DNA of 59,991 nt from an uncultured Gammaproteobacteria bacterium (lineage in GTDB: Bacteria > Patescibacteriota > Microgenomatia > Daviesbacterales > UBA10151), in the NCBI GenBank assembly GCA_964551605.1, contig CAZKCV010000001.1:1-59991 (forward strand), read 5' to 3'. A program made the translations under genes and the position numbers. Shown here piece after piece: positions 798-59,991 of the stretch (its first letter is position 1; the number at the start of each line of letters is the position of its first letter). The notes beneath the pieces were generated by a model. It saw only the letters and a list, made by a program, of their open reading frames with translations, had not been told where the DNA came from and did no database searches.

Positions 798-1378
798 GTG
801 AGTCAGGAATTCTGAAAGACGCTTATCTAGCAGGCGGGACAGCCTGCGCGCTTCAACTTGGCCATCGCCTCTCTTTAGACCTTGATTTTTTTACAGATCA
901 GGAATTCTCGACAGAAATGGTTTTAAAACAATTGGGACAGTTGCCGGGATTTAAATTGAGTGAGACAGAGAGATGGACTATACTGGGCAGTTTTCCAAAA
1001 GTAAAATTCAGTTATTTTTATTATCGATATCCGCTGGTTAATAAAACCTTTCTTTTTTCCAAGATCAGAATAGCATCCTTAGAAGATATTGCAGCCATGA
1101 AAATTGCTGCCATTTGTGATAGGGGAACCAAACGTGACTTCATAGACTTATACTTTCTTGTCCAACAAGGATTATCTCTTAAAAAGATTCTCAAGCTTTA
1201 CGATAAAAAATATGGTAAACTCTCAAACAATATTTATCACATTTTAAGAAGTCTTAACTACTTTGTCGATGCCGATCCTCAGCATTCTCCTAAAATGTTT
1301 AAAGAAGTTTCCTGGGAAGAAATAAAAGAATATTTTACCATACAAACCAGAAAGCTGACCGAAAAGTTACTGAAATGA
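746..1378 (+). CDS. AbiEii/AbiGii-family nucleotidyltransferase toxin
   Basis: YLAGGTA..LQLGHRLSLDLDFF, IAAMKIAAI..RG.KRDFIDLY. Confidence 0.85.
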   Translation: MFTNTLSKNAADALAILGESGILKDAYLAGGTACALQLGHRLSLDLDFFTDQEFSTEMVLKQLGQLPGFKLSETERWTILGSFPKVKFSYFYYRYPLVNKTFLFSKIRIASLEDIAAMKIAAICDRGTKRDFIDLYFLVQQGLSLKKILKLYDKKYGKLSNNIYHILRSLNYFVDADPQHSPKMFKEVSWEEIKEYFTIQTRKLTEKLLK

Positions 1379-3462
1379 ATCTTAAAACTCCGCTTTCTGC
1401 TTTAACCGGAATTGGTCCCGGGCTTTTATATAGACTTAAAAGACTTAACTTAAACTCTATTGAAGATCTGATATATCATTTTCCCTTTAGGTATGATGAT
1501 TTTTCCAATACTACTTCTGCACTGGAGGCTAAAGTAGGGGAGACTGTTACTTTACAGGGGGAAATCTGGTCGATCCAAAATATCTATACCCGGTCCCGGA
1601 AAATTATTACCAAAGCCGTATTTAATGATGGTGCCTCACCCATAGAACTAACCTGGTTTAACTCCTCCTGGCTGGTTAAACAAATACAAACAGGGGACAG
1701 GCTGCAGGTTTCAGGCAAAATCAGCAAATATAAAAACAAGCTTTCCATCATAGCCCCGCATTGGGAAAAACTTCCAACCCCCGGTGTTGGACAGCTTCCA
1801 ACCCCGGGATTACATACCGGCAGACTCGTCTCAATCTACCCTGAAACGGATGGTTTAAGTTCTAAATGGCTGCGGACAAAAATAGACAAGCTGCTGCCGG
1901 AAGTCATAGAGGAAATTAAGGATCCGTTACCGGATTCCATCCGTCAAAGCATGTTGCCACTTAGGGAAGCCATAAAACAAGTCCATTTCCCGGAAAATTG
2001 GGAACAGGCAGAAAAGGCCAGGGCAAGGTTAGGCTTTGATGAGCTATTTTTTATTTCTTTAGCTACCCATAAAGCCAGAGCAGAGTGGAAAAGAAAACCC
2101 TTAATTGAACCGTTAAAAATAAATCCCGAAGATATTAAGGAATTTACTGCTAAGCTACCCTTCAAACTAACCTATGCCCAGGAGAAAGTCTTAAAAGAAA
2201 TTCTGGAAGATTTAAAAAGTAATCAACCCATGAACAGATTGGTACAGGGGGAGGTAGGTTCCGGAAAAACAATTGTGGCTACCATTATTGCTTACCTGGT
2301 TTATAAAAACGGGCGGCGGACGCTTTTTATGGCCCCCACGGAAATTCTGGCTTTTCAGCATTACGATACGTTATCCAAACTTTTATCGCCATTTGGAATC
2401 ACAGTTGGAATATATACTGGATCTTACAAGTTTACTGAGGGTAAAGGGGGAAGCGGAAAGGGGAAAGTTAGAAAAAAACTTTACCCTTCACCCTTAACGC
2501 TTAACCCTGACATTATCATTGGCACCCATGCCCTTCTTTCTAAAAAACTTGCCACCGAGAATGTCGGACTGATCATCATAGATGAACAACAACGTTTTGG
2601 GGTCGAGCAAAGAACACTTTTGCGGGGAAAAACAGAAGTGCCGCATTTTTTAACTATGACAGCTACTCCCATCCCCAGAACAGTTGCCTTAACTTTATAC
2701 GGCGATCTTGATATGTCAGTCATTGATGAGTTACCGGTAGGCAGGCAAAGGGTGAAAACATATGTGGTTCCGGAAAGAAAGCGGCTTGATTCTTATGGCT
2801 TTATAGCCAAAAAGGTGGCTGAAGGAGACCAGGTTTATATAATTACCCCATTAATTGAAGCCTCCGAAACCCTCACCAGTGTCAAGGCAGCCAAGGTAGA
2901 ATTTGAGAGCTTAAAGAAAATCTTTCCCGGCCTCAACTTAGATCTGTTGCACGGCAGAATGAAGGGAACGGAAAAAGAAAAGGTAATTACGGACTTCCGC
3001 AAAGGCAAAACCGATATTTTAGTTTCCACCTCAGTAGTGGAAGTGGGCATGGATAACCCTAATGCCACCATTATGGTTATTGAAGGAGCAGAACGGTTTG
3101 GTTTGGCTCAGCTCCACCAACTGCGGGGTAGAGTGGGCAGGGGAACGAAAGAATCTTATTGCCTACTTTACACATCGGATGTGTCAAGTAATGAAGAGGG
3201 GAGGCTAAAATACTTGGAAACTACATTTGACGGGCTGAAACTGGCTGAACTGGACTTAAAAATCAGGGGCAGCGGGCAGATTTTTGGAACCATGCAATCC
3301 GGCAGGTTTGAATTGAAAATAGCAAATTTCCAAAATATCACCCTGCTGGAAAAAACCCGCCAGGCGGCCAAAGAGCTGTTAGATGCGGATCATACTCTTG
3401 ACAAACACCCGCTAGTTAAGGCAAGATTACAGGAAATCGCATCAGCAGTGATGCCTGATTAA
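1375..3462 (+). CDS. recG: ATP-dependent DNA helicase RecG
   Basis: HFPFRYDD, wedge OB fold, QGEVGSGKT, MAPTEILA.QH, DEQQRFG, MTATPIPRT, QLHQLRGRVGRG, DL.IRG.G. Confidence 0.97.
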   Translation: MNLKTPLSALTGIGPGLLYRLKRLNLNSIEDLIYHFPFRYDDFSNTTSALEAKVGETVTLQGEIWSIQNIYTRSRKIITKAVFNDGASPIELTWFNSSWLVKQIQTGDRLQVSGKISKYKNKLSIIAPHWEKLPTPGVGQLPTPGLHTGRLVSIYPETDGLSSKWLRTKIDKLLPEVIEEIKDPLPDSIRQSMLPLREAIKQVHFPENWEQAEKARARLGFDELFFISLATHKARAEWKRKPLIEPLKINPEDIKEFTAKLPFKLTYAQEKVLKEILEDLKSNQPMNRLVQGEVGSGKTIVATIIAYLVYKNGRRTLFMAPTEILAFQHYDTLSKLLSPFGITVGIYTGSYKFTEGKGGSGKGKVRKKLYPSPLTLNPDIIIGTHALLSKKLATENVGLIIIDEQQRFGVEQRTLLRGKTEVPHFLTMTATPIPRTVALTLYGDLDMSVIDELPVGRQRVKTYVVPERKRLDSYGFIAKKVAEGDQVYIITPLIEASETLTSVKAAKVEFESLKKIFPGLNLDLLHGRMKGTEKEKVITDFRKGKTDILVSTSVVEVGMDNPNATIMVIEGAERFGLAQLHQLRGRVGRGTKESYCLLYTSDVSSNEEGRLKYLETTFDGLKLAELDLKIRGSGQIFGTMQSGRFELKIANFQNITLLEKTRQAAKELLDADHTLDKHPLVKARLQEIASAVMPD
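1772..1811. repeat. In-frame palindrome CCAACCCCCGGTGTTGG plus partial second copy in recG
   Basis: Encodes LPTPGVGQLPTPG; near-identical to 21987-22006 in holB. Confidence 0.7.
2439..2508. repeat. In-frame inverted heptamer tract in recG
   Basis: GGGTAAA GGGGGAA GCGGAAA GGGGAAA ... TTTACCC TTCACCC TTAACGC TTAACCC; encodes GKGGSGKGKVRKKLYPSPLTLNP. Confidence 0.7.
3167..3188. repeat. In-frame palindrome ACACATCGGATGTGT in recG
   Basis: Near-identical to 29588-29610 in alr; both encode YTSDVSS. Confidence 0.65.
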
Positions 3463-5391: not shown

Positions 5392-5638
5392 CTACATTGT
5401 TACCAGTTTAGTTACCAAACCGGAAGCCGTCTTGATTGATGAACAAAAAGAAGACAGCTTCATTACTTTGAATTTAATAGTTGACCCGTCTGATATGGGA
5501 CTGATTATCGGCAAAGGCGGTCAAACCATCAGGGCTATCAGAAAACTTTTAACAGTCAGGGCAATAGCAGAAAACGTTAGAGTGAATCTTCAATTGACAG
5601 AACCTTCAGTCAGTACATCTCCCGACGTGTCTACCTAA
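5375..5638 (+). CDS. khpA: KH-domain RNA-binding protein (KhpA/YlqC family)
   Basis: [17 protein letters not shown]; conserved position between rpsP and trmD. Confidence 0.9.
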
Positions 5639-5668
5639 CCCACACCTGGGGTGTGTTAGGTTCACACC
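5627..5668. repeat. REP-like doublet palindrome (family 1)
   Basis: GTGTCTACCTAAC-CCACACCTGGGGTGT-GTTAGGTTCACACC; the arms match the tails of the RAYT1-flanking elements. Confidence 0.8.
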
Positions 5669-6432: not shown

Positions 6433-6462
6433 GTATCTACCTATCTCACCCCCGGGGTGGGA
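6433..6462. repeat. REP-like element (family 1), left flank of RAYT1
   Basis: GTATCTACCTATCTCACCCCCGGGGTGGGA. Confidence 0.8.
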
Positions 6463-6502
6463 TGAATTGACACCGTACTAATTTTTGTTGTAGTCTGAAA
6501 TT

Positions 6503-7171
6503 ATGCCCCTGCGCAAAATTCCCATTGTAGCCGGTGAAATTTATCATGTTTTCAACAGAAGTGTAGCGAGGCAACCAATCTTCCTCTCGTCTAGTGATTA
6601 TCGTCGGGCTGTGGAATGTATGAAATTTTATCTACATGACAACTTACCCCTCCGTTTTTCTCACTACAACCGTCTTCCCAAAGAACAAAAGGACTTGATG
6701 GATAAAACAATAAAAAATTCTTCCCGACTAATAGAAATATTAAGCTTTTGTCTGATGCCTAATCATGTGCATTTCCTGCTCAGAGGTCTAACAGAGAAAG
6801 GGATCATTCAATTTATGAGTAATTTCCAAAATAGCTATGCAAAATATTTTAACCTAAAAACAAATAGAAGCGGAACTTTATTTCAGGCAATGTTTAAAGC
6901 AGTTCGAATAGAAACCGGCGAACAACTTATGCATGTCAACCGATACATACACTTAAATCCCTTCACATCATATATAGTTAGTAATATCGCTGATTTGGAG
7001 AAATACCCATGGTCTTCATGCCCTGATTATTTAGATCCTTCACCAAGCTTCATAAATAAGGAGTTTGTATTAAGCTTTTTCAAAGATATACCGTCTTACA
7101 AACAATTCATTGCAGACCAAGCCGATTATCAACGCAGGCTGGACGAGATTAAACATTTAGTTCTTGAATAA
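6503..7171 (+). CDS. REP-associated tyrosine transposase (RAYT, Y1/HUH, IS200-like fold), copy 1
   Basis: YHVFNR, CLMPNHVH (HUH), SYAKYFN, YIHLNP, YPWSS; upstream TTGACA (6467)..TAGTCT (6491). Confidence 0.9.
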   Translation: MPLRKIPIVAGEIYHVFNRSVARQPIFLSSSDYRRAVECMKFYLHDNLPLRFSHYNRLPKEQKDLMDKTIKNSSRLIEILSFCLMPNHVHFLLRGLTEKGIIQFMSNFQNSYAKYFNLKTNRSGTLFQAMFKAVRIETGEQLMHVNRYIHLNPFTSYIVSNIADLEKYPWSSCPDYLDPSPSFINKEFVLSFFKDIPSYKQFIADQADYQRRLDEIKHLVLE

Positions 7172-7177
7172 CTGGAC

Positions 7178-7208
7178 GGTGTGAACCTAACCCACCCCGG
7201 GGGTGGGA
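7178..7208. repeat. REP-like element (family 1), right flank of RAYT1
   Basis: GGTGTGAACCTAACCCACCCCGGGGGTGGGA, same orientation as the left flank. Confidence 0.8.
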
Positions 7209-7235
7209 GACGCACACACCGTCTTCAGATTCAGC

Positions 7236-7928
7236 TTACTCAAAAGGGTTTGATTTACCTCGGGAAGTTAAGGGGGTTTCGGTAAAACCTGCAGTTTCCG
7301 CTTCCTGCATAATCCTGGCAATCAGTTCTTCATCCTTCTGACTAAGCAAAGGCACCGGGGAATCCGGACTGCCGAAATCCTTGGGTAAAGGCGAATACAA
7401 AACTTCAATAGCCAAAGCTATATTTAAAGCTTCAATTGCCTGGTTAGATGAAATGTCTATGCTTTTTATCCTCACCAGCCGGGGTGAATTCTCCAAATTA
7501 TCCAGTAAGGCTTGTAGCAATATTCTGGAACCTCTAAGTTCCATTTTAACCTCAAAACTATTTGCGTTCCCTAATTGCCCGGCAGTATTGCCGAAGGAGA
7601 TGGAACTGATACCAAATCCCAGCTCCAGGGTCAGTTTCTGCAACAATCCTACAACACTCCCAAAATCTTTTTCGCCGGGAAGGGTAACCAAGGCGAATTC
7701 CAGTTTGCGGGATAAATCCGTGCTATCATAACTTTCCAAAGCGCTGACTTTATTTTCCAAAAGCTTAGACTTATTCATCAGACCCTCAATGACACTCTGG
7801 TTATCAACTAACTTAATCACCTGGGGATAAATTATAAATAAAATTATAAAAATGCTGGATAATGCCACCGCTGCCGGAAAAATATAGAGATTATATTTGG
7901 TATAGAATTTAATTAAATCTTGCTTCAT
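7236..7928 (-). CDS. pilO: Type IV pilus assembly protein PilO-like
   Basis: N-terminal TM, coiled coil, LP.EKD..., LQALLDNLENSPRLVRIKSI; follows pilM-pilN. Confidence 0.75.
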   Translation of the reverse strand: MKQDLIKFYTKYNLYIFPAAVALSSIFIILFIIYPQVIKLVDNQSVIEGLMNKSKLLENKVSALESYDSTDLSRKLEFALVTLPGEKDFGSVVGLLQKLTLELGFGISSISFGNTAGQLGNANSFEVKMELRGSRILLQALLDNLENSPRLVRIKSIDISSNQAIEALNIALAIEVLYSPLPKDFGSPDSPVPLLSQKDEELIARIMQEAETAGFTETPLTSRGKSNPFE

Positions 7929-21594: not shown

Positions 21595-22251
21595 GTGATT
21601 GCAAGGCTTTTAATTTCTAGCTCCAAAGACAGGCTGAAAGAGGAAATAACAGAAATTTTACGCCTCAACCTCTCAGGTTACCGCACAAATCATCTTGATT
21701 TGTTGTATATCCAGGCTGGAGAAAAACTGGGGATTGCGGAAGCCAGGAGGATTAAAAATCATTTTTCCCTTAAGCCATATTCTGCAAAAGGCAAAGCGGT
21801 AGTTTTAGAAGATGCCTCGGTCATGACGGTTGAGGCCCAAAATGCCTTATTAAAGACCCTGGAAGAATTACCGGCAGAAGCCTTGTTGATTTTAGGAACC
21901 AGCTCAGAGGCCAATTTTCTGCCGACTGTCCTCTCCCGCTGCCAAATTATCCACCTTCAAGATACTAACCCCGCGGGTGATACGCACCCAACCCCGGGGG
22001 TTGGAAAGGAAGATATTGAGAAATTGATCAGTTCTTCCGTAGAAGAGCGTTTTGCATTTATTGAAAAGCTTAAAAATAAGGAAGAATTTCTAAAAGTATT
22101 AATTCGGTATTTTAATCAGGATGTAGCCAAAAACAAGAACCTCTTAATGAAGCTTTTACAGGCAGAAGAGTGGGCAAAACAGAATGTCAACATCCGGGCA
22201 ATTTTGGAATATTTAATGCTGGAAATGCCATCGGACCGAAGCACAAAATAA
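21595..22251 (+). CDS. holB: DNA polymerase III delta-prime-like protein (truncated, no Walker A)
   Basis: LGIAEARRI, KAVVLEDA..MT.EAQNALLKTLEE, LPTVLSRCQII. Confidence 0.8.
   Translation: MIARLLISSSKDRLKEEITEILRLNLSGYRTNHLDLLYIQAGEKLGIAEARRIKNHFSLKPYSAKGKAVVLEDASVMTVEAQNALLKTLEELPAEALLILGTSSEANFLPTVLSRCQIIHLQDTNPAGDTHPTPGVGKEDIEKLISSSVEERFAFIEKLKNKEEFLKVLIRYFNQDVAKNKNLLMKLLQAEEWAKQNVNIRAILEYLMLEMPSDRSTK
21666..21690. repeat. In-frame palindrome, family 3 (CAACCTnnnAGGTT + tail)
   Basis: caacctctcaggttaccgcacaaat. Confidence 0.65.
21968..22006. repeat. In-frame palindromes in holB (CCCAACCCCGGGGGTTGG)
   Basis: Encodes NPAGDTHPTPGVG; matches recG 1772-1791 and resembles the family 1 hairpin. 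Confidence 0.7.
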
Positions 22252-24639: not shown

Positions 24640-24812
24640 CTCATTTTTCGCATTTCAAAGCTATAAATCATATAATGTAGCTTAGTTATGGCTACAAAGG
24701 TAGTAAGAAAATATTTTCCACCTGGAGGGTGGACTAGCTTGGCACCTCTTCTTTTCTCGCATTAACAGATTAAAAATCATATAATGTAGCTTAAACTATG
24801 GCTACAAAAGTA
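24640..24812 (+). repeat. Tandem duplication of the murC promoter/5' end, split by a family-2 REP
   Basis: AAATCATATAATGTAGCTTA..ATGGCTACAAA.GTA occurs at 24665 and 24774; REP at 24716-24747 lies between them. Confidence 0.85.
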
Positions 24813-26186
24813 CATTTTTTGGGAATAGGGGGGAGTGGGGCATCAGGGGCGGCGGCTATTGCAGAGGCCCAGGGTTTTGAAGTCACCGGCTGCGACCTGC
24901 AACCCCACAATGAATTTACCACCCAATTCAAAAACTCCCAGCTTTTTCAAGGACATGATCCAAAACATTTAGCTTGCAACCTGAAAGGTTATCGCACGAA
25001 TATTTTGGCAGTCACTCCGGCTATTTTTTCTTTGGATCCGGATAATCCAGAGCTAGTAGCAGCCAAAGAAAAAAATATTCCCATAATAACCTGGCAACAG
25101 TTTCTTGGGGAGTATTTAACCAGGGACAAATTCGTGATTGCAGTTTGCGGTACACATGGCAAAACCACTACCACTGCCATGATTGCCAAACTTTTGGAAG
25201 ATGCCGGTCTGGATCCCACAGTTTTACTTGGAGCCATCATCCCCAAATGGGGCACCAACTACCGTATCCATCGACAAAAAGTCCACGACCGTGAATATTT
25301 TGTCATTGAAGCAGATGAATTTAATGATAATTTTTTGCCTACAAAACCGGATATCGCTGTAGTCACTAATATTGAAATGGACCATCCGGAATATTTTAAG
25401 GATTTTGAGACAGTCAAAGAAAGCTTCAGAAAATTTTTACTCCAAGCCAAACAGGCTGTAGTAGCCAATCTGACTGACCCTGGTGCAGCTGAAGTTGTCA
25501 AAGTAGTCATGAAAACACCAATTAAACAAAAATCTGACGATCGTCAATATTTTGTCAAATACCTGGACTACTCTAGAAATGAATTAAGTGTAAGTTTACG
25601 AATTCCGGGGGAATTTAACCGGTTAAATGCCAAAGCTGCCATGCAGGTGGGACTTTTACTGGGAATGGAACCGGAAACCATCAGAAACAGTCTGGCAGGT
25701 TTTACCGGAGCCGGCAGAAGGTTTGAATATATCGGAGAATATCAGGGAGCTAAGGTCTATTCAGATTTTGGCCACCATCCGACGGAAATTGCCAAAACTA
25801 TGGAAGCGGTCCGGGAAGAATTTCCCAACCAGCGAATTTTACTGATTTACCAACCGCACATGTTCTCCCGCACTAAAGCACTTTTTGATGACTTTGTGAA
25901 GGTATTCCGGGAGATCCCGGCCGATAAAACCCTTATCATGGACATCTACCCTTCCAGAGAGATTGATACCGGACTAGTCACCAGCCGGCAATTGGTCCAA
26001 GCAGTCCAAAACCAAGTGGAACCAAAATTACGCAATGGCGGAAAAATGGTACCGGATATCATGTACACAGGAAGTAATGAACAAACCCTAAACAATCTGA
26101 AACCAGAGATAAAAACAGGTGATATTATCTTTTTCATGAGCGCCGGGGATACGGACAAATTAGCAAAAGAGCTAGTCGGCTCCTAA
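24798..26186 (+). CDS. murC: UDP-N-acetylmuramate--L-alanine ligase
   Basis: GIGGSG, GTHGKTTTT, VIEADE, VTNIEMDH, GAGRRFE, DFGHHPTE, YQPH.FSRT. Confidence 0.93.
   Translation: MATKVHFLGIGGSGASGAAAIAEAQGFEVTGCDLQPHNEFTTQFKNSQLFQGHDPKHLACNLKGYRTNILAVTPAIFSLDPDNPELVAAKEKNIPIITWQQFLGEYLTRDKFVIAVCGTHGKTTTTAMIAKLLEDAGLDPTVLLGAIIPKWGTNYRIHRQKVHDREYFVIEADEFNDNFLPTKPDIAVVTNIEMDHPEYFKDFETVKESFRKFLLQAKQAVVANLTDPGAAEVVKVVMKTPIKQKSDDRQYFVKYLDYSRNELSVSLRIPGEFNRLNAKAAMQVGLLLGMEPETIRNSLAGFTGAGRRFEYIGEYQGAKVYSDFGHHPTEIAKTMEAVREEFPNQRILLIYQPHMFSRTKALFDDFVKVFREIPADKTLIMDIYPSREIDTGLVTSRQLVQAVQNQVEPKLRNGGKMVPDIMYTGSNEQTLNNLKPEIKTGDIIFFMSAGDTDKLAKELVGS
24976..25001. repeat. In-frame palindrome, family 3, in murC
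   Basis: gcaacctgaaaggttatcgcacgaat. Confidence 0.7.
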
Positions 26187-33305: not shown

Positions 33306-35882
33306 ATGAGTAACATTGGCAAAGTTTTAACCACTCCCATTATTGAAGAAATGCAAAAGTCCTATTTGGACTATGCCATGTCAGTCATTGTTTCCCGGGC
33401 CCTTCCTGATGTCCGTGACGGCTTAAAACCTGTCCAGCGAAGGATCATCTATGCCATGCACCAGCAGGGCCTACATCACAGTTCCCGGTTCCAGAAATCC
33501 GCTGCCGTCGTAGGTGAAGTCTTAAAAAACTTCCACCCGCACGGTGATGCCCCGGTTTATGAAGCCATGGTCAGAATGGCCCAGAACTTTTCCATGAGGT
33601 ATATGTTAGTGGACGGTCAGGGAAACTTCGGTTCAATTGACGGCGATTCTCCGGCAGCCATGCGTTATACAGAAGCCAGACTTTCGGCAATCTCGGAAGA
33701 GCTCCTGCGTGACATAAATAAAAACACGGTCGAGTTTGTAGATAATTACTCCGGTACTACCAGGGAACCGGTCCTTTTACCCTCTGTTATACCTAATCTG
33801 CTGCTAAACGGTGCTTCCGGCATTGCCGTAGGTATGGCCACCCAAATCCCACCCCATAACTTAGGGGAAGTCTGCGATGCCTTAATTTACATGATTGAGC
33901 ATCCAGCCAAAAACGTCATTGCGAGCGAAGCGAAGCAATCTTCCGCGGACGAGGAAGATCGCCACGTCGAATCGAAAATCGACTCTCCTCGCGATGACAA
34001 TAAATTTTCCTCCACCGCTACGGTTGAAGACTTAATAAAATTTGTCAAAGGCCCGGATTTTCCTACCGGGGCTTCCATTTATGACCAAAGTGAAATCCTG
34101 GCAGCATATGCTACCGGAAAAGGCCGGATTGTAATGCGGGCCAAAGCAGAAATAGATGAAACACCACAGGGAAAAATGCAGATCATTGTTTCCGAGCTGC
34201 CGTACCAGGTAAATAAAGCTACCTTAATTGCCAGAATTGCTGAACTGGTGAAGGATAAAAAATTAGACGGCATTGCTGATTTGCGGGATGAATCTGACCG
34301 GAAACAAATGGTCAGGATTGTTTTTGACCTAAAAAGGGATGCCAAACCGCAATCACTTTTGAACAGCCTGTATAAATATACTGCCATGCAGTCAGTTTTT
34401 AATGTTAACCTGGTAGCTCTCTCAGATGGTGTGCCTCATCTTTTAACCTTAAAACACATCCTGGAAGAATTTATCCATCATCGGCAAGTTGTCGTCACCA
34501 GACGCTCTGAATTTGAACTGGCCGAGGCCAAAGCCCGTGAACATATTCTGGAAGGCTTAAAAATTGCCGTTGACAATATTGATGCCGTGATTGAAACCAT
34601 CAAAAAGTCAAAAGATGCTGATGCCGCCAAAACCAATTTGATGGCCAGATTTAAGCTGACTGAAATTCAGGCTTTAGCTATCCTGGATATGCAGCTTAGA
34701 AGGTTAGCTGCCCTGGAAAGGCAAAAGATTGATGATGAGTTAAAAATGGTCCGGGAAACTATTGCCTATCTGGAAGATCTTTTAGCCCATCCGGAAAAAA
34801 TCTTAAAAGTTATCAAAGGGGAACTGGAAAAAATCAAGGAAAAATACGGCGATGACAGAAGAACCAGGGTTTATAAACAAAAAGTAGGGGAGTTTTCCGA
34901 AGAAGACCTGGTACCGAATGAGGTGACCATTGCCACCATCACTGAAGGAGGCTACATCAAGCGCCAGTCTCCGATGTCTTTCAGAACCCAACAGCGGGGC
35001 GGCAAAGGGGTGATGGGTATTTCCACCAAAGAAACTGATGCGGTCTCTCATATTTTTTACACCCAGACCCATGACAGTATTTTATTCTTTACTGATAAAG
35101 GAAGGGTTTTCCAAATTAAAGTCTGGGAAATTCCGGAAACCCAACGGGCTGCCAAAGGCCAGGCCGTTGTAAATTTAATCAATATTGAGCAGGGAGAAAA
35201 AGTAACGGCGGTTTTGACTACCCGCCAAAAGGGGGAAAGCACCCAATACTTCTTTATGTGTACCGGCAAAGGCACGGTCAAAAAAACCTCCCTTTCTGAA
35301 TATGCCAATATCCGGAAAAGCGGTTTGGTGGCAATTAAGCTGGATTCGGGAGACGAGCTAGGATGGGTAGCTGCCACCGCTGGTAAAGATGACCTGATTA
35401 TTGTCTCCAGAGCCGGCAAATCCATCCGCTTCTCTGAAACCCAGGTTAAACCAACCCACCGTGACACTTCCGGGGTAAGAGGCATAAGACTTAGCAAAGA
35501 TGATGAAGTAGTCTCATTAAATATTGTCCAAAAAGATGCCCAGCTTTTAGTAATCATGGAAAATGGCTTAGGCAAAAAGACGGCATTTTCAGCCTGGAGC
35601 CGACAGGGCAGGGGAGGACAGGGCGTCAAAGCTGCCCAGGTTACAGCTAAAACCGGCCAGATTGTTACTGCCCAGGCAGTTGACGGCAAAATGGATACTT
35701 TAGTCTTAACTTCCAACAAAGGGCAGTTAATTAAAATGGATTTGGCAGAAGTACCAACACTGCAGCGCCAGACCCAGGGAGTAATTTTAATGAGAGTCAG
35801 AGCAGGGGAAAAGGTGGCAGCAGCCACGGTTGTAGCTTCTAAGGAAAAAACCGAACAAAAAGAGACTAAGAAAGAAGAATGA
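33306..35882 (+). CDS. gyrA: DNA gyrase subunit A
   Basis: [29 protein letters not shown], GyrA-box QQRGGKG, C-terminal beta-pinwheel repeats. Confidence 0.98.
33915..33998. repeat. 84-bp in-frame nested-hairpin insertion in gyrA
   Basis: Terminal IR GTCATTGCGAG / CTCGCGATGAC and internal ATCTTCC..GGAAGAT; encodes [28 protein letters not shown]. Confidence 0.8.
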
Positions 35883-36337: not shown

Positions 36338-36427
36338 AATTATACTCAAGCGGAGGCATATATACCTCCCAAAAACCTCTAAACCAAATCGTTTCTAAAC
36401 CAGATTGTAAGACAGACATCAAAGAGT

Positions 36428-36458
36428 AGGTGCCAAGCTAGTCCACCCTCCAGGTGGA
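36428..36458. repeat. REP-like element (family 2), left flank of RAYT2
   Basis: AGGTGCCAAGCTAGTCCACCCTCCAGGTGGA. Confidence 0.85.
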
Positions 36459-36499
36459 AAGGTATTGACACCTATACTTATTTGCTTTATTTTTAAGAT

Positions 36500-37174
36500 A
36501 TGCCAACTAACAGAAAACTGGTATTTGCAAATGATGAAATTTACCACGTATTTAATAGGGGAGTTGAAAAAAGGCCAACCTTTACAGACAAACGTGAACT
36601 AAAAAGGGCAATGCTCACCTTAGACTTCTATAGATTTGCTAAACCGCCTCTTAAGTTATCAAAACTTCTGGTTACACCTCAAGATGAACAGGTAGAGTTA
36701 TTGGGAAAACTTAAGAGAGACCATGAACAGTTGGTAGAAATAATATGCTTTTGCCTAATGCCCAACCATTTCCATTTTATGCTTAAACAAAAAACAGAAA
36801 ATGGCATCTCAACTTTTGTATCCACTGTTGCTAATAGCTATACCAGATACTTTAATACTAAGCATGACCGCATAGGCCCTTTATTTGAAGGAATATTTAA
36901 GGCTGTAAGGATAGAGTCAGACGAGCAACTGATACATGTATCAAGGTACATACACTTAAATCCGGTTTCTTCCTTCTTGATTAAACCGGAAGAATTAGAA
37001 AATTACGAGTGGTCATCTTACCCTGAATTCCTGGGATTATCAGATGGAAAGGTTGCTGCCAAAGACCTTATATTAGATTTCTTTCCTTCAGTAGAAGCTT
37101 ACAAAAAGTTTGTTTTGGATCAGGCAGATTATGCTCAACAACTGAACTTAATCAAACACTTAGCTCTGGAATAA
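36500..37174 (+). CDS. REP-associated tyrosine transposase (RAYT), copy 2
   Basis: YHVFNRG, CLMPNHFH, SYTRYFN, SRYIHLNP, YEWSS; upstream TTGACA-17-TATTTT. Confidence 0.9.
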   Translation: MPTNRKLVFANDEIYHVFNRGVEKRPTFTDKRELKRAMLTLDFYRFAKPPLKLSKLLVTPQDEQVELLGKLKRDHEQLVEIICFCLMPNHFHFMLKQKTENGISTFVSTVANSYTRYFNTKHDRIGPLFEGIFKAVRIESDEQLIHVSRYIHLNPVSSFLIKPEELENYEWSSYPEFLGLSDGKVAAKDLILDFFPSVEAYKKFVLDQADYAQQLNLIKHLALE

Positions 37175-37187
37175 TACAAAAAAGGAA

Positions 37188-37218
37188 AGGTGCCAAGCTA
37201 ATCCACCTTCCAGGTGGG
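37188..37218. repeat. REP-like element (family 2), right flank of RAYT2
   Basis: AGGTGCCAAGCTAATCCACCTTCCAGGTGGG. Confidence 0.85.
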
Positions 37219-37222
37219 ATAT

Positions 37223-55127: not shown

Positions 55128-55162
55128 TCACCCTAGGGGTGGATACAGGTTGGCACCCCAGG
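55128..55162. repeat. REP-like element downstream of RAYT3
   Basis: TCACCCTAGGGGTGG..TTGGCACCCCAGG; preceded by TAGTCAC-type repeats. Confidence 0.8.
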
Positions 55163-55188: not shown

Positions 55189-55860
55189 TTATTCCATTAC
55201 CAAATCTTTTATGTAGGCTAAACTCCTTTGGTAGTCCGCCTGATTTGCCACAAATTCAACATATTTCTCCTTTGTCCCGAATATTTTTAATAGAAAGTTC
55301 GAATCAATAAAGGGAATCTGTTGATCCGTGGCATATGCCGGAAAAGAAGTCCATTCAAAATCAGCTAATTTATCAAACTCAATTATGTATGAAGTTACCG
55401 GGTTGAGATGGATATAGCGGGAAACATGGATGAAATCCTCATCGGTCGCAATCCTTCTAGCCTTAAAAGCATTTTGAAATAAAGCTCCGTTACGGTTATT
55501 TTTCAAATTAAATGCCTTGGCAAAGCTGTTTTGTAAGTTGGAGATAAAGGTAACAATCCCCTTGTCCACAAGCTGTTTTAACAAAAAATGAAAATGGTTT
55601 GGCATAAAAGCAAAAACATAAATTTCCACCAGAGGCGTTATACTTCCCAGAGCATCCAGATACTGCTTCTTCAATTCTGATGTTAAGCTTTTAAATTTGG
55701 ACAGCCTGATTTTTTGGGGAAAGCGATAATAGTCGACTATTTCCAGGGCTTTATTTAAATTATCTTTCTGATTCTGGGCAAAGATATTTTCCCTGGCAAT
55801 TGAACGGTTGAAAACATGATAAATTTCATCGTTGGCAAAAACTACTTGTCGTTGAGGCAT
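55189..55860 (-). CDS. REP-associated tyrosine transposase (RAYT), copy 3
   Basis: YHVFNR, FMPNHFH, SFAKAFN, SRYIHLNP, FEWTS; upstream TTGACA-17-TAATCT. Confidence 0.9.
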   Translation of the reverse strand: MPQRQVVFANDEIYHVFNRSIARENIFAQNQKDNLNKALEIVDYYRFPQKIRLSKFKSLTSELKKQYLDALGSITPLVEIYVFAFMPNHFHFLLKQLVDKGIVTFISNLQNSFAKAFNLKNNRNGALFQNAFKARRIATDEDFIHVSRYIHLNPVTSYIIEFDKLADFEWTSFPAYATDQQIPFIDSNFLLKIFGTKEKYVEFVANQADYQRSLAYIKDLVME

Positions 55861-55885: not shown

Positions 55886-55920
55886 CCTGGGGTGTCAATA
55901 TACGACCACCCCTAGGGTGA
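55886..55920. repeat. REP-like element upstream of RAYT3, inverted relative to the downstream copy
   Basis: Reverse complement TCACCCTAGGGGTGG..TTGACACCCCAGG. Confidence 0.8.
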
Positions 55921-58820: not shown

Positions 58821-58863
58821 GGACACCTCCGAGGAGTAACTTCGTCACACCTCGGAGGTGGGA
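58821..58863. repeat. REP-like doublet overlapping the tgt stop
   Basis: GGACACCTCCGAGGAG .. CACACCTCGGAGGTGGGA. Confidence 0.65.
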
Positions 58864-59991
58864 TTTTTAAGGTATTCAGCTTTTAATTCCCTGAATTTTC
58901 CCTGCTTGATGGCTTTTCTCATATTCTCCATTAGATGAATTACAAAATACACGTTATGATGAGTAGCCAGCTGGTGGTACAGGATCTCATTAGCCATGTA
59001 AAGGTGGCGGAGATATGCTCTGGAAAAATTTTTACAAGTGTAACAACTGCAGCTTGAATCAATCGGCTTTTTATCAGTGGTAAATTTACCCTGCCTGATA
59101 TTCAAGGTAAAGCTATTGGCTCTTTTTCCGCCGGCTTGAGGTGAAATATACAAAGAGCCAAACCTGGCCCGTCTCATTGGTGCCACACAGTCAAAAAAAT
59201 CCATGCCCCCCTCAACTCCGTTAAACAGGTCTTCCACTTCCCCGATTCCCAGCAGGTGTTTAGGCTTGTCTTCCGAAACCTCACTAACCACCCATTCCAC
59301 AATCTTACAAAGGGTGGCCTTGTCCCCATAAATCCCGCCAATGGCAATGGCTTCAAAATTATCATCAGTAAACCGGGCAGACCTGATCCGCAGATCCTTG
59401 TGTATTCCGCCATGAACAACACCATAAAGTAAAGGTGCAGCTACATTTCCACCCTCCAGGTGGACTAGCTTGGCACCTACTCTTTTTTTATATTCTGCCA
59501 GGCTACGGAGCCCCCATCTTTCTGTCAGCTCTATGGACTCCAGCATTTGAGCCTTAGTGTGCTTTGCAGATTCATGATCATCAAAAGCCACAATTAAATC
59601 AGCTCCCAGCTGGCGTTGGATTTTGATTGACTTCTCGGGAGTTAAAATATACTTGGAGCCGTCTAGATGGGATTGAAAAGTAACCCCTTCTTCCGTAATT
59701 TTGTTTAACCTTGGCCTGCTTTTTACATTCTGAACTATGAATTCTGAATTCTGAATTTCTCGCAGCACTTTGCTGCTGCCATGCTCCAGTGCCACCCCCA
59801 GGGAATAAACCTGAAAGCCACCGGAATCAGTCATAACAGGTTTATCCCAACCCATGAACTGATGTAAACCACCAAACTTTTCTATTAAGTCCGCGCCCGG
59901 ACGGAGCATCAAATGATAAGTGTTAGCTAAAATAATCTGGCTGCCGATTTCCGAAAGCTCCCGGGGCCCCAGGGCTTTAACTGCACCTAAA
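58845..59991 (-). CDS. tgt: tRNA-guanine transglycosylase (5' end beyond the window)
   Basis: ANTYHLMLRPG, TDSGGFQ, GVVHGG, HLLGIG, DCV.P, CSCYTC..H zinc site; frame open to the window edge. Confidence 0.95.
   Translation of the reverse strand, partial: LGAVKALGPRELSEIGSQIILANTYHLMLRPGADLIEKFGGLHQFMGWDKPVMTDSGGFQVYSLGVALEHGSSKVLREIQNSEFIVQNVKSRPRLNKITEEGVTFQSHLDGSKYILTPEKSIKIQRQLGADLIVAFDDHESAKHTKAQMLESIELTERWGLRSLAEYKKRVGAKLVHLEGGNVAAPLLYGVVHGGIHKDLRIRSARFTDDNFEAIAIGGIYGDKATLCKIVEWVVSEVSEDKPKHLLGIGEVEDLFNGVEGGMDFFDCVAPMRRARFGSLYISPQAGGKRANSFTLNIRQGKFTTDKKPIDSSCSCYTCKNFSRAYLRHLYMANEILYHQLATHHNVYFVIHLMENMRKAIKQGKFRELKAEYLKNPTSEV
59447..59481. repeat. Family-2 REP inserted in frame in tgt
   Basis: Reverse complement AGTAGGTGCCAAGCTAGTCCACCTGGAGGGTGGAA; encodes VGAKLVHLEGG. 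Confidence 0.85.
59727..59758. repeat. In-frame heptamer tract (ATTCAGA)n in tgt
   Basis: Encodes IQNSEFIVQN. Confidence 0.7.

Follow-up and report, generated by a model that had tools for sequence, protein, structure and literature searches.

Introduction

According to Nunvar 2010 (PMC2817692), rayt genes invariably have a repetitive extragenic palindrome (REP) on each side, the two being in inverted orientation, and each of six Stenotrophomonas RAYTs has its own REP. The rule of one REP family per RAYT is stated there, in Di Nocera 2013 (PMC3733652) and in Quentin 2018 (PMC6006769). Double-foot REPs and in-frame REP insertions have also been described in the earlier literature. Di Nocera 2013 (PMC3733652) reported intragenic REPs, many of them in replication or repair genes, together with TIRYT genes, whose flanking inverted repeats are in part self-complementary and reach moderate copy numbers. 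The TIRYTs correspond to subclass 2.1 of Quentin 2018 (PMC6006769) and to group 1 of Bertels, a class described as REP-less. The present analysis concerns the first 59,991 nucleotides (hereafter, the window) of contig CAZKCV010000001.1, which is 222,933 bp long in total. The window contains three genes for RAYT-like proteins, RAYT1, RAYT2 and RAYT3, with flanking palindromes designated REP1, REP2 and REP3, and the focus is on RAYT2 and REP2. This locus is probably a REPtron-like unit, in which a RAYT/TIRYT-type Y1 (HUH) gene is bracketed by cognate palindromes in a groundwater member of Candidatus Daviesbacteria, a lineage of the candidate phyla radiation (CPR/Patescibacteria).

RAYT2, TGT and GyrA have their closest homologues in sequences annotated as Candidatus Daviesbacteria or Microgenomates, and the sequence is present in groundwater metagenomes. 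No paper on a RAYT or REP in Patescibacteria or Daviesbacteria was found among open-access texts. Since neither the pairing of each RAYT with one REP family nor the occurrence of REPs in reading frames is new, the value of the locus lies in its variant features. Judging from the sequence comparisons, the new features would be a head that co-varies with the hairpin and also supplies the −35 box of an apparently leaderless promoter, hairpin flanks around the gene of a subclass-2.1-like protein, and a CPR host; strong nucleotide-level conservation of fixed-site copies, accompanied by loop flipping, appears to be a further variant feature. The locus would extend RAYT/REP-type systems to ultra-small, streamlined CPR genomes, where repeats are not expected to persist.

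REP2 elements flanking RAYT2

The REP2 core is a 31-nt sequence (GGTGCCAAGCTAGTCCACC-loop-GGTGGAA) located on either side of RAYT2 (Table 1). The 31-mer GGTGCCAAGCTAGTCCACCCTCCAGGTGGAA is found without mismatches at 36429-36459(+) and 24716-24746(−), and with three mismatches at 37189-37219(+). A fourth copy at 59447-59477(−) is identical at 26/26 non-loop positions, and its 5-nt loop is inverted (TGGAG for CTCCA), which is why it falls outside the 31-mer pattern search; compared with the RAYT2 upstream copy, the similarity spans 59 nt at 81%. A preceding sequence-only reading had described a 31-bp element flanking RAYT2 in direct orientation, with copies at 24716 (intergenic) and 59447 (in tgt), approximately 12 kb and 22 kb away. 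The two flanking 31-mers are in direct orientation, and these coordinates and distances are correct.

The upstream unit consists of a head (GGTGCCAA, 36429-36436), the spacer GCTAGT, the hairpin CCACC-CTCCA-GGTGG (36443-36457) and, after the spacer aaaggta, a second, inverted foot (TTGACACC, 36465-36472). As single-stranded DNA it folds at −11.4 kcal/mol (z = −3.1), with an internal loop separating an 8-bp outer stem from an inner hairpin of 5-6 bp. The downstream copy and the copy at murC consist of the left head and hairpin only. The downstream hairpin (37202-37218) is followed by a T-rich run, ATATTTATTT, and is terminator-like. Within the window there are four copies of REP2, three of REP1 and two of REP3; two of the REP2 copies lie away from RAYT2, and REP1 has one such extra copy. 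No Rfam family covers any part of the window. A generic scan of the window for GC-rich hairpins returned 76 hits and was not discriminating.

Table 1. Positions of the RAYT genes, REP units and associated features in the window.
Feature	Position	Strand	Remarks
RAYT2	36500-37174	+	224 aa; Y1/HUH tyrosine transposase-like; C-terminal helical extension of ~65 aa
Upstream REP2, double-footed	36421-36479	+	A-rich lead AAAGAGTA, head, spacer, hairpin, spacer, inverted foot
Downstream REP2, single-footed	37181-37219	+	GGTGCCAAGCTAATCCACCTTCCAGGTGGGA
Promoter-like site, sigma-70-type	36465-36493	+	TTGACA, 17 nt, TATTTT; 10/12 consensus positions
REP2 at murC, single-footed	24708-24755	−	31/31 identical to upstream core; intergenic, ~50 nt 5′ of murC-like start
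tgt (tRNA-guanine transglycosylase)	58845-59991	−	Pfam TGT E = 5.7e-98; PDB TGT chains E = 5e-78; 5′ end beyond window
REP2 in tgt, double-footed, loop TGGAG	59427-59485	−	Read in frame as (V)GAKLVHLEGGNVAAP
RAYT1	6503-7171	+	47% identical to RAYT2; between trmD and 230-aa gene
REP1, double-footed	5627-5668		12 nt 5′ of trmD ATG (5680)
REP1 upstream of RAYT1	6433-6474	−	Hairpin CACCCCCGGGGTG, foot TTGACACC
REP1 downstream of RAYT1, double-footed	7178-7220	+	GGTGTGAA...CCCACCCCGGGGGTGGG...CACACACC
RAYT3	55189-55860	−	45% identical to RAYT2; between TPR gene and YebC-like gene
REP3 upstream of RAYT3	55886-55920	+	GGTGTCAA...CACCCCTAGGGTG on + strand
REP3 downstream of RAYT3	55128-55162	−	GGTGCCAACCTGTATCCACCCCTAGGGTGA

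RAYT2 as a RAYT-like Y1 enzyme

RAYT2 contains the Pfam domain Y1_Tnp (E = 3.5e-8), which RAYT1 and RAYT3 also carry. Its HUH motif is NHFH (H90, H92), and the catalytic tyrosine would be Y150 in RYIHLNP; these three residues are unchanged in all 42 homologues compared. The motifs NHFH, RYIHLNP and W(S/T)S are common to RAYT1, RAYT2 and RAYT3, which share 45-47% pairwise identity; the earlier reading had called them clearly divergent. The AlphaFold2 model of RAYT2 (predicted local distance difference test, pLDDT, 90; predicted template modelling score 0.87) was compared with known structures by Foldseek, and the best PDB match was E. coli TnpA-REP in complex with a REP hairpin (4ER8; E = 3.6e-7); the next-ranked matches were the TnpA structures of ISDra2 and IS608. 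A single-sequence search of the PDB with RAYT2 gave no match, and a profile search gave only marginal ones (ISDra2, E = 0.02; 4ER8, E = 0.15) with false positives among them, so that the link of RAYT2 to known structures rests on the fold comparison. By its predicted fold, its HUH motif and the single tyrosine in Y---NP, RAYT2 is a RAYT-like, domesticated-looking Y1 enzyme. It belongs to a large family, with 7961 hits among 8000 scored candidates.

A comparison of motifs and length with the table of Quentin, which is not a joint phylogeny, places the three proteins near subclass 2.1: NHFH, LFQ (RAYT1 and RAYT3) or LFE (RAYT2), YIHLNP, WSS or WTS, and 222-224 aa. The TIRYTs of this subclass have NH[YF]H, FQ, Y[IV]HLNP and SS, and are approximately 238 aa long with a C-terminal extra domain; the low copy number, the divergent paralogues within one genome, and the inverted-repeat flanks, some self-complementary and forming only moderately abundant families, are also shared with the TIRtron. 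No helix-turn-helix domain was found in the C-terminal 73-74 residues of the window proteins (Pfam, E up to 10). The flanks differ from those of the TIRYTs, whose terminal inverted repeat has the motif GGGGWSAS, in that GGTG[CT]NAA is combined here with a separate GC hairpin; GGTGTCAA and GGTGCCAA resemble the TIRYT motif but do not fit it. GC hairpins occur in most loci of the present family, in contrast to subclass 2.1, which is reported to lack REP-like structures, and CPR hosts were not found for TIRYTs in the open-access literature.

The E. coli REPtron (TnpA-REP, YafM, 4ER8; REP/BIME; Quentin subclass 2.2) likewise comprises a single-domain Y1/HUH protein with Y---NP, and its palindromes bracket the gene and recur elsewhere in the genome. 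In contrast, RAYT2 is only 12% identical to TnpA-REP and is 224 aa long instead of 165 aa, with an additional helical C-terminal extension. In E. coli the head is an invariant GTAG that sits at the hairpin foot, whereas the RAYT2-family head GGTG[CT]NAA stands 6-7 nt from a 5-bp hairpin and co-varies with it. A few copies per 60 kb are present here, compared with hundreds per genome in E. coli.

Family architecture and co-variation of head and hairpin

In a survey of the family (79 loci from GTDB genomes), most loci show the order hairpin, 6-7 nt, TTGACACC, ~30 nt, open reading frame (ORF), GGTG[CT]NAA, 6-7 nt, hairpin. The family rule is two inverted units with their heads toward the gene, and it holds for all three RAYTs of the window. 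The 31-mers at RAYT2 are in direct orientation because the upstream unit is double-footed and possesses an extra outer head.

The right foot of the upstream REP2 is also the −35 box of the promoter-like site of RAYT2. The −10 box ends 6 nt 5′ of the ATG, implying that the RAYT2 mRNA is apparently leaderless. The layout TTGACA, 16-18 nt, TAnnnT is found in 55 of 80 family loci, with the −10 end exactly 6 nt from the ATG in 28. The use of the upstream head as a −35 box suggests that the enzyme may regulate its own gene.

The bases 5′ of YNAA repeat the loop-proximal part and the 3′ arm of their own hairpin, and the head changes with the hairpin: GGTG is found with CCACC..GGTGG, GTGTG with CACAC..GTGTG, GGTTG with CAACC..GGTTG, GGATCG with CCGATC..GATCGG, and CCCGAGGTG with TTCCAC-TCCCGAG-GTGGAA. 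As the head repeats the 3′ arm, it could pair with the 5′ arm in place of the 3′ arm, and this pairing is the minimum-energy fold of both REP3 units. The complementarity between head and arm averages 4.55 nt within the same unit versus 3.57 nt across units; the observed value was reached by 0/2000 permutations, which is not a clean probability as the loci are related. This co-variation leads to concrete predictions about how a Y1 enzyme reads its substrate.

In-frame REP2 in tgt

The tgt ORF is uninterrupted across REP2, the core of which is translated as GAKLVHLEGGN. The element folds at −12.8 kcal/mol (z = −3.9) and has the same two feet as the RAYT2 upstream copy. Compared with the TGT of Z. 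mobilis, nine extra residues are present at the REP2 site, which lies between a helix and a strand and has a pLDDT below 50 in a poor AlphaFold2 model (truncated TGT, pLDDT 61); that the insert is unstructured is all that this model would support. A recognisable REP2 insert is found at the same site in approximately 20 of 121 TGT orthologues, which are scattered over the tree and show both loop orientations (HLEGG and HPPGG), and the close orthologues P0123, P0124 and P0126 are without it. An intact ORF, absence from close orthologues and a loop position thus characterise the tgt REP2 as an in-frame palindromic insert. Intragenic REPs and Rickettsia palindromic elements (RPE) are comparable in that a palindrome is inserted in frame into a housekeeping protein at the same site in several species, and replication or repair genes are hit in the window as they are by intragenic REPs (recG and the DNA polymerase III delta′ gene, described below). 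The tgt insert is approximately 44-50 nt long (~16 aa, net gain 11 aa), compared with ~100-150 nt for RPE-1, and a candidate cognate transposase gene lies 22 kb from it, which distinguishes it from RPE.

The DNA of the tgt REP can be aligned base for base among the window and the related loci L207, L082, L080 and L081. The full double-footed copies (window, L207, L082 and L080) are 82-95% identical outside the loop; in the same four genomes, identity is 62-76% over the rest of tgt and 42-53% at third codon positions. The copy of L081 has lost its right half and is 69-72% identical to the others. L081 and L085 belong to one contig, JACOXH010000002.1, where RAYT2 is missing from its usual site. 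Since the tgt site is filled in about 20 of 121 orthologues, including one genome without RAYT2 at the usual site, the tgt copy appears to be old and not a recent product of the present RAYT2. The earlier reading regarded this copy as the clearest link between a transposase-flanking REP and an in-frame insertion; the copy is of RAYT2 type and in frame. It offers a well-defined instance in which to ask whether forces acting on the DNA maintain repeats inside proteins.

The empty tgt site of L206 reads CGAAAAAGAG / ACGATGG..., and the filled site of the window reads AAAAAAAGAG / TAGGTGCC... (slash, boundary). The A-rich AAAGAG is present at the empty site and 5′ of most REP2 copies elsewhere. 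At the REP site, other TGT orthologues have unrelated inserts (CHSEAKPKN..., QLSAISLKTKK... and YDGRRKKCQ), which indicates that this loop of TGT is an insertion hot spot. Two further segments of TGT, at ~59720-59800 (residues 66-91 of the partial protein) and at residues ~283-291, are extra relative to Z. mobilis and variable among Daviesbacteria; one extra segment holds gaattctgaattctgaat and the hairpin gcagcactttgctgc.

REP2 between gyrB and murC

At the gyrB-murC site, the metagenome contigs L114, L118 and L142 have a double-footed REP2 in the orientation opposite to that of the window copy, and the site is empty or otherwise occupied in L002, L004, L055 and L083-L085. Like the tgt copy, the murC copy appears to be old, its site being filled in these three contigs also. 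L140 and L142 belong to one 44-kb contig, which contains both the murC REP2 and a RAYT2 orthologue bearing REP2 flanks. At tgt, the loop alone is inverted (CTCCA versus TGGAG): this is the case between window positions 59447-59477 and 36429-36459, and between L080 and L081 on one side and L082 and L207 on the other. Loop inversion at tgt and whole-element inversion at murC suggest flipping between short inverted arms.

In the window, the murC REP2 lies between two direct copies of ~65 nt (~80% identical; 24641-24814), each covering the murC promoter and codons 1-5. Of the two, the upstream one opens a 25-aa ORF (24688-24765) running through the REP. These direct copies could be an insertion-linked duplication or the repair of an insertion. 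The TTGGCA of the dispersed copies was considered as a −35 box of murC and ruled out, as it is 35 nt from TATAAT.

Vertical descent of the RAYT genes

The RAYT2 orthologues of L001, L002, L004 and L005 (65-76% identity) are all located between gyrA-o69 and o91-o97-o118. Similarly, the RAYT1 orthologues of L014, L028, L030 and L056 lie between trmD and the 230-aa gene, and the RAYT3 orthologue of L081 (75% identical) lies between the TPR gene and the YebC-like gene. RAYT1, RAYT2 and RAYT3 are, as far as sequence and gene order indicate, old paralogues, each at a chromosomal site conserved among species. Low copy number, syntenic orthologues and the lack of near-identical duplicates are as in the RAYT class.

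In the closest relative (GyrA 93%), o69 abuts o91 without RAYT2 (L083), RAYT3 is missing between the TPR and YebC-like genes (L206), and no REP is found in tgt or 5′ of murC. L084 and L085 are likewise without RAYT2; a 231-aa ORF after gyrA in L084 was considered as a RAYT and is not one. Comparison of the filled site of L001 (GGCAAACCATAG / TCCACC...GGTGGAAGAA / TTATTTACTTCC) with the empty site of L083 (GGCAAACCCATATAA / TTATTTACTTCC) revealed that the cassette ends at the outer feet of both hairpins and that there is no target duplication. The neighbouring gyrA of the window (33306-35882) includes a stretch resembling a lineage-specific insert; the GyrA proteins of close relatives range from 809 to 882 aa, and several orthologues have inteins (1263-1346 aa).

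One flank type per RAYT

The flanks of REP1, REP2 and REP3 type differ in spacer, stem and loop within one shared plan (GGTG[CT]NAA, 6-7 nt, CCACC-type hairpin), in agreement with the earlier statement that each RAYT has a different flank. The REP1 downstream of RAYT1 folds at −17.3 kcal/mol (z = −4.1). The REP1 at 5627-5668 is spanned by a GTG-start ORF of the ORF list and seems intragenic, which it probably is not.

Enzyme-specific REP families coexisting in one genome, as proposed from the first reading, are plausible on sequence grounds: the flank type of RAYT2 is distinct and the murC and tgt copies are of RAYT2 type, and the idea itself is already established. The description of REP2 as private was overstated, since it implies no cross-recognition, yet REP2 and REP3 share GGTGCCAA and CCACCC. 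The check proposed with it, of REP family against RAYT clade, showed that flank similarity does track RAYT identity over 81 loci (Spearman rho 0.50; reached by 0/999 Mantel permutations), a result that is expected from physical linkage alone; as the flanks are linked to the gene, tracking by itself does not prove enzyme specificity. When each upstream flank was ranked against the downstream flanks, its own partner had rank 1 in 35 of 81 loci, a coarse test, as many loci share CCACC-type units. Three divergent enzyme/repeat pairs within 60 kb form a natural set for cross-specificity comparison. REPIN-RAYT systems of Pseudomonas fluorescens SBW25 and Stenotrophomonas maltophilia are similar in that several divergent RAYTs each have their own repeat class, inheritance is vertical, and RAYT and REP trees agree. 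REPIN-RAYT families comprise hundreds of copies, REP doublets and a GT[AG]G head; in contrast, the copies here are few, the double-foot element forms one compact unit of 44 nt, and the host has a genome of only ~1 Mb.

Abundance in metagenomes

The REP2 pattern was recovered in at least 120 metagenome stretches. Eighty-four REP2 matches in 80 stretches were placed: approximately 28 flank RAYT genes, three are at murC, and the rest are mostly intergenic or at gene edges. In four groundwater metagenomes, the two REP2 bins exceed their neighbours 7-60-fold in word depth, with many different loose ends; this depth was obtained from Logan contigs, in which several organisms are mixed. A contig of run X4 connects the end of the downstream REP (37222) with the start of the upstream REP (36427), with only 33 nt on its short side; it might represent a circle junction but could equally derive from two REPs in tandem at another place or from misassembly, and was not used.

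Proposed mechanism and alternative explanations

If the locus is a REPtron-like unit, RAYT2 would bind the hairpin and head of REP2 on single-stranded DNA, probably at the replication fork, and would copy, excise or homogenise REP2 by tyrosine-mediated cleavage and strand transfer. Such action would keep REP2 units alike within and between lineages. RAYT1 and RAYT3 would play the same role toward their own unit types, and the tgt copy would persist owing to its position in a TIM-barrel loop, between helix and strand, where an insertion is tolerated. Beyond the sequence anatomy, this mechanism is drawn from E. coli TnpA-REP and IS608 (PMC3479197). An association with RAYT2 is also seen, in small numbers: the closest relative is without RAYT2, RAYT3, the tgt REP and the murC REP, the contig without RAYT2 at the usual site keeps a tgt REP in decayed form, and RAYT2 and the murC REP occur together on the contig of L140 and L142.

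Several points weigh against a REPtron-like unit. The nearest NCBIfam model of all three RAYTs, REP_Tyr_transpos (NF047646), scores 45-47 bits, below its equivalog cut-off of 80, and subclass 2.1, to which the RAYT2 motifs fit, is described as being without REP association. Instead of the canonical GT[AG]G at the foot of the stem, the head is GGTG[CT]NAA, placed 6-7 nt away and stem-dependent. Extra copies are few, with 12 cognate hairpins outside gene flanks in 1.17 Mb of related loci. The tracking of genes by their flanks is expected from linkage, the high conservation of the REPs could reflect selection unrelated to recognition by RAYT, and the murC and tgt copies, which stand at sites shared with other species, could be inert fossils. 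Furthermore, the case for mobilisation of REP2 is drawn from assembled contigs.

A more far-reaching version of the REPtron-like unit can be put forward tentatively, namely that a subclass-2.1-like Y1 enzyme reads its palindromes via a variable, hairpin-matching head, in a programmable, guide-like manner, and actively maintains fixed-site copies by excision and re-insertion or by conversion. If true, this would explain why the tgt copy is ~90% identical across species with saturated synonymous sites, why loops are flipped, and why copies decay or are lost where the cognate RAYT is lost.

It is unlikely that the flanks are mainly expression signals of the RAYT gene (operator, −35 box and terminator), with the distant copies as inert relics and nothing mobilised today. 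The promoter layout kept in 55 of 80 loci (in RAYT2 itself, TTGACA-17-TAnnnT), the terminator-like downstream hairpin, and the presence of the hairpin only twice, both times at the gene, in most related loci are consistent with such a role; tgt and murC copies common to other species, and one genome that has a tgt copy without RAYT2 at the usual site, would suit relics. However, a relic should drift as synonymous positions do, and the tgt REP is 82-95% identical against 42-53% for third positions. The TGT insert is also patchy on the tree and found in both loop orientations, REP2-like units occur in many metagenome contexts, and the co-variation of head and hairpin extends well past the −35 hexamer.

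A rather improbable alternative is that RAYT2 with its two hairpins constitutes a present or recent IS200-like insertion sequence capable of autonomous transposition, in which case the copies at murC and tgt would be the solo ends or miniature derivatives that it left behind. Filled and empty sites do differ by a clean cassette with outer-foot ends and no target duplication, RAYT3 shows a like contrast between the window and L206, and AAAGAG before most copies and at the empty tgt site is like an IS200/IS605 target. Elements of the IS200/IS605 family (IS608, ISDra2) share the catalytic fold, the hairpins at both ends and the absence of target duplication, and in both cases a short stretch close to the hairpin has its complement elsewhere in the element, reminiscent of the pairing of guide and cleavage site. 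Against this, near-identical gene copies are absent (the paralogues are 45-47% identical), orthologues of 65-78% identity stand at the same site in several species, tnpB is absent, and the tyrosine motif is the class 2 type Y---NP in contrast to Y---Q of IS200. The ends are symmetric and inverted, each having its head placed inward of the hairpin, toward the gene, which is not the arrangement of IS608. As for chance or low-complexity composition, for which only the shortness of the element speaks, it is already refuted as the origin of the four similar 31-mers: GGTGCCAAGCTAGTCCACCCTCCAGGTGGAA has 0 matches in 100 shuffles compared with three observed plus a fourth beyond the mismatch limit, the similarity reaches 40-59 nt, and REP2 recurs in the metagenome stretches.

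Other palindromes

Palindromes of another type (CCAACCCC/GGGGTTGG) occur in frame in recG (1755-1812; ORF 1375-3462), where the palindrome encodes PHWEKLPTPGVGQLPTPGLH, and in the DNA polymerase III delta′ gene (21966-22006; ORF 21595-22251). Their stems resemble the RAYT flanks of L035, L039 and L040, and the window contains no such RAYT. In L085, a double-footed REP (GGTGTCAAGCTGATCCACCCGGAGGGTGGAATACATTGGCACC) at 7732-7790 falls within the stretch assigned to a DegT/DnrJ/EryC1 aminotransferase gene.

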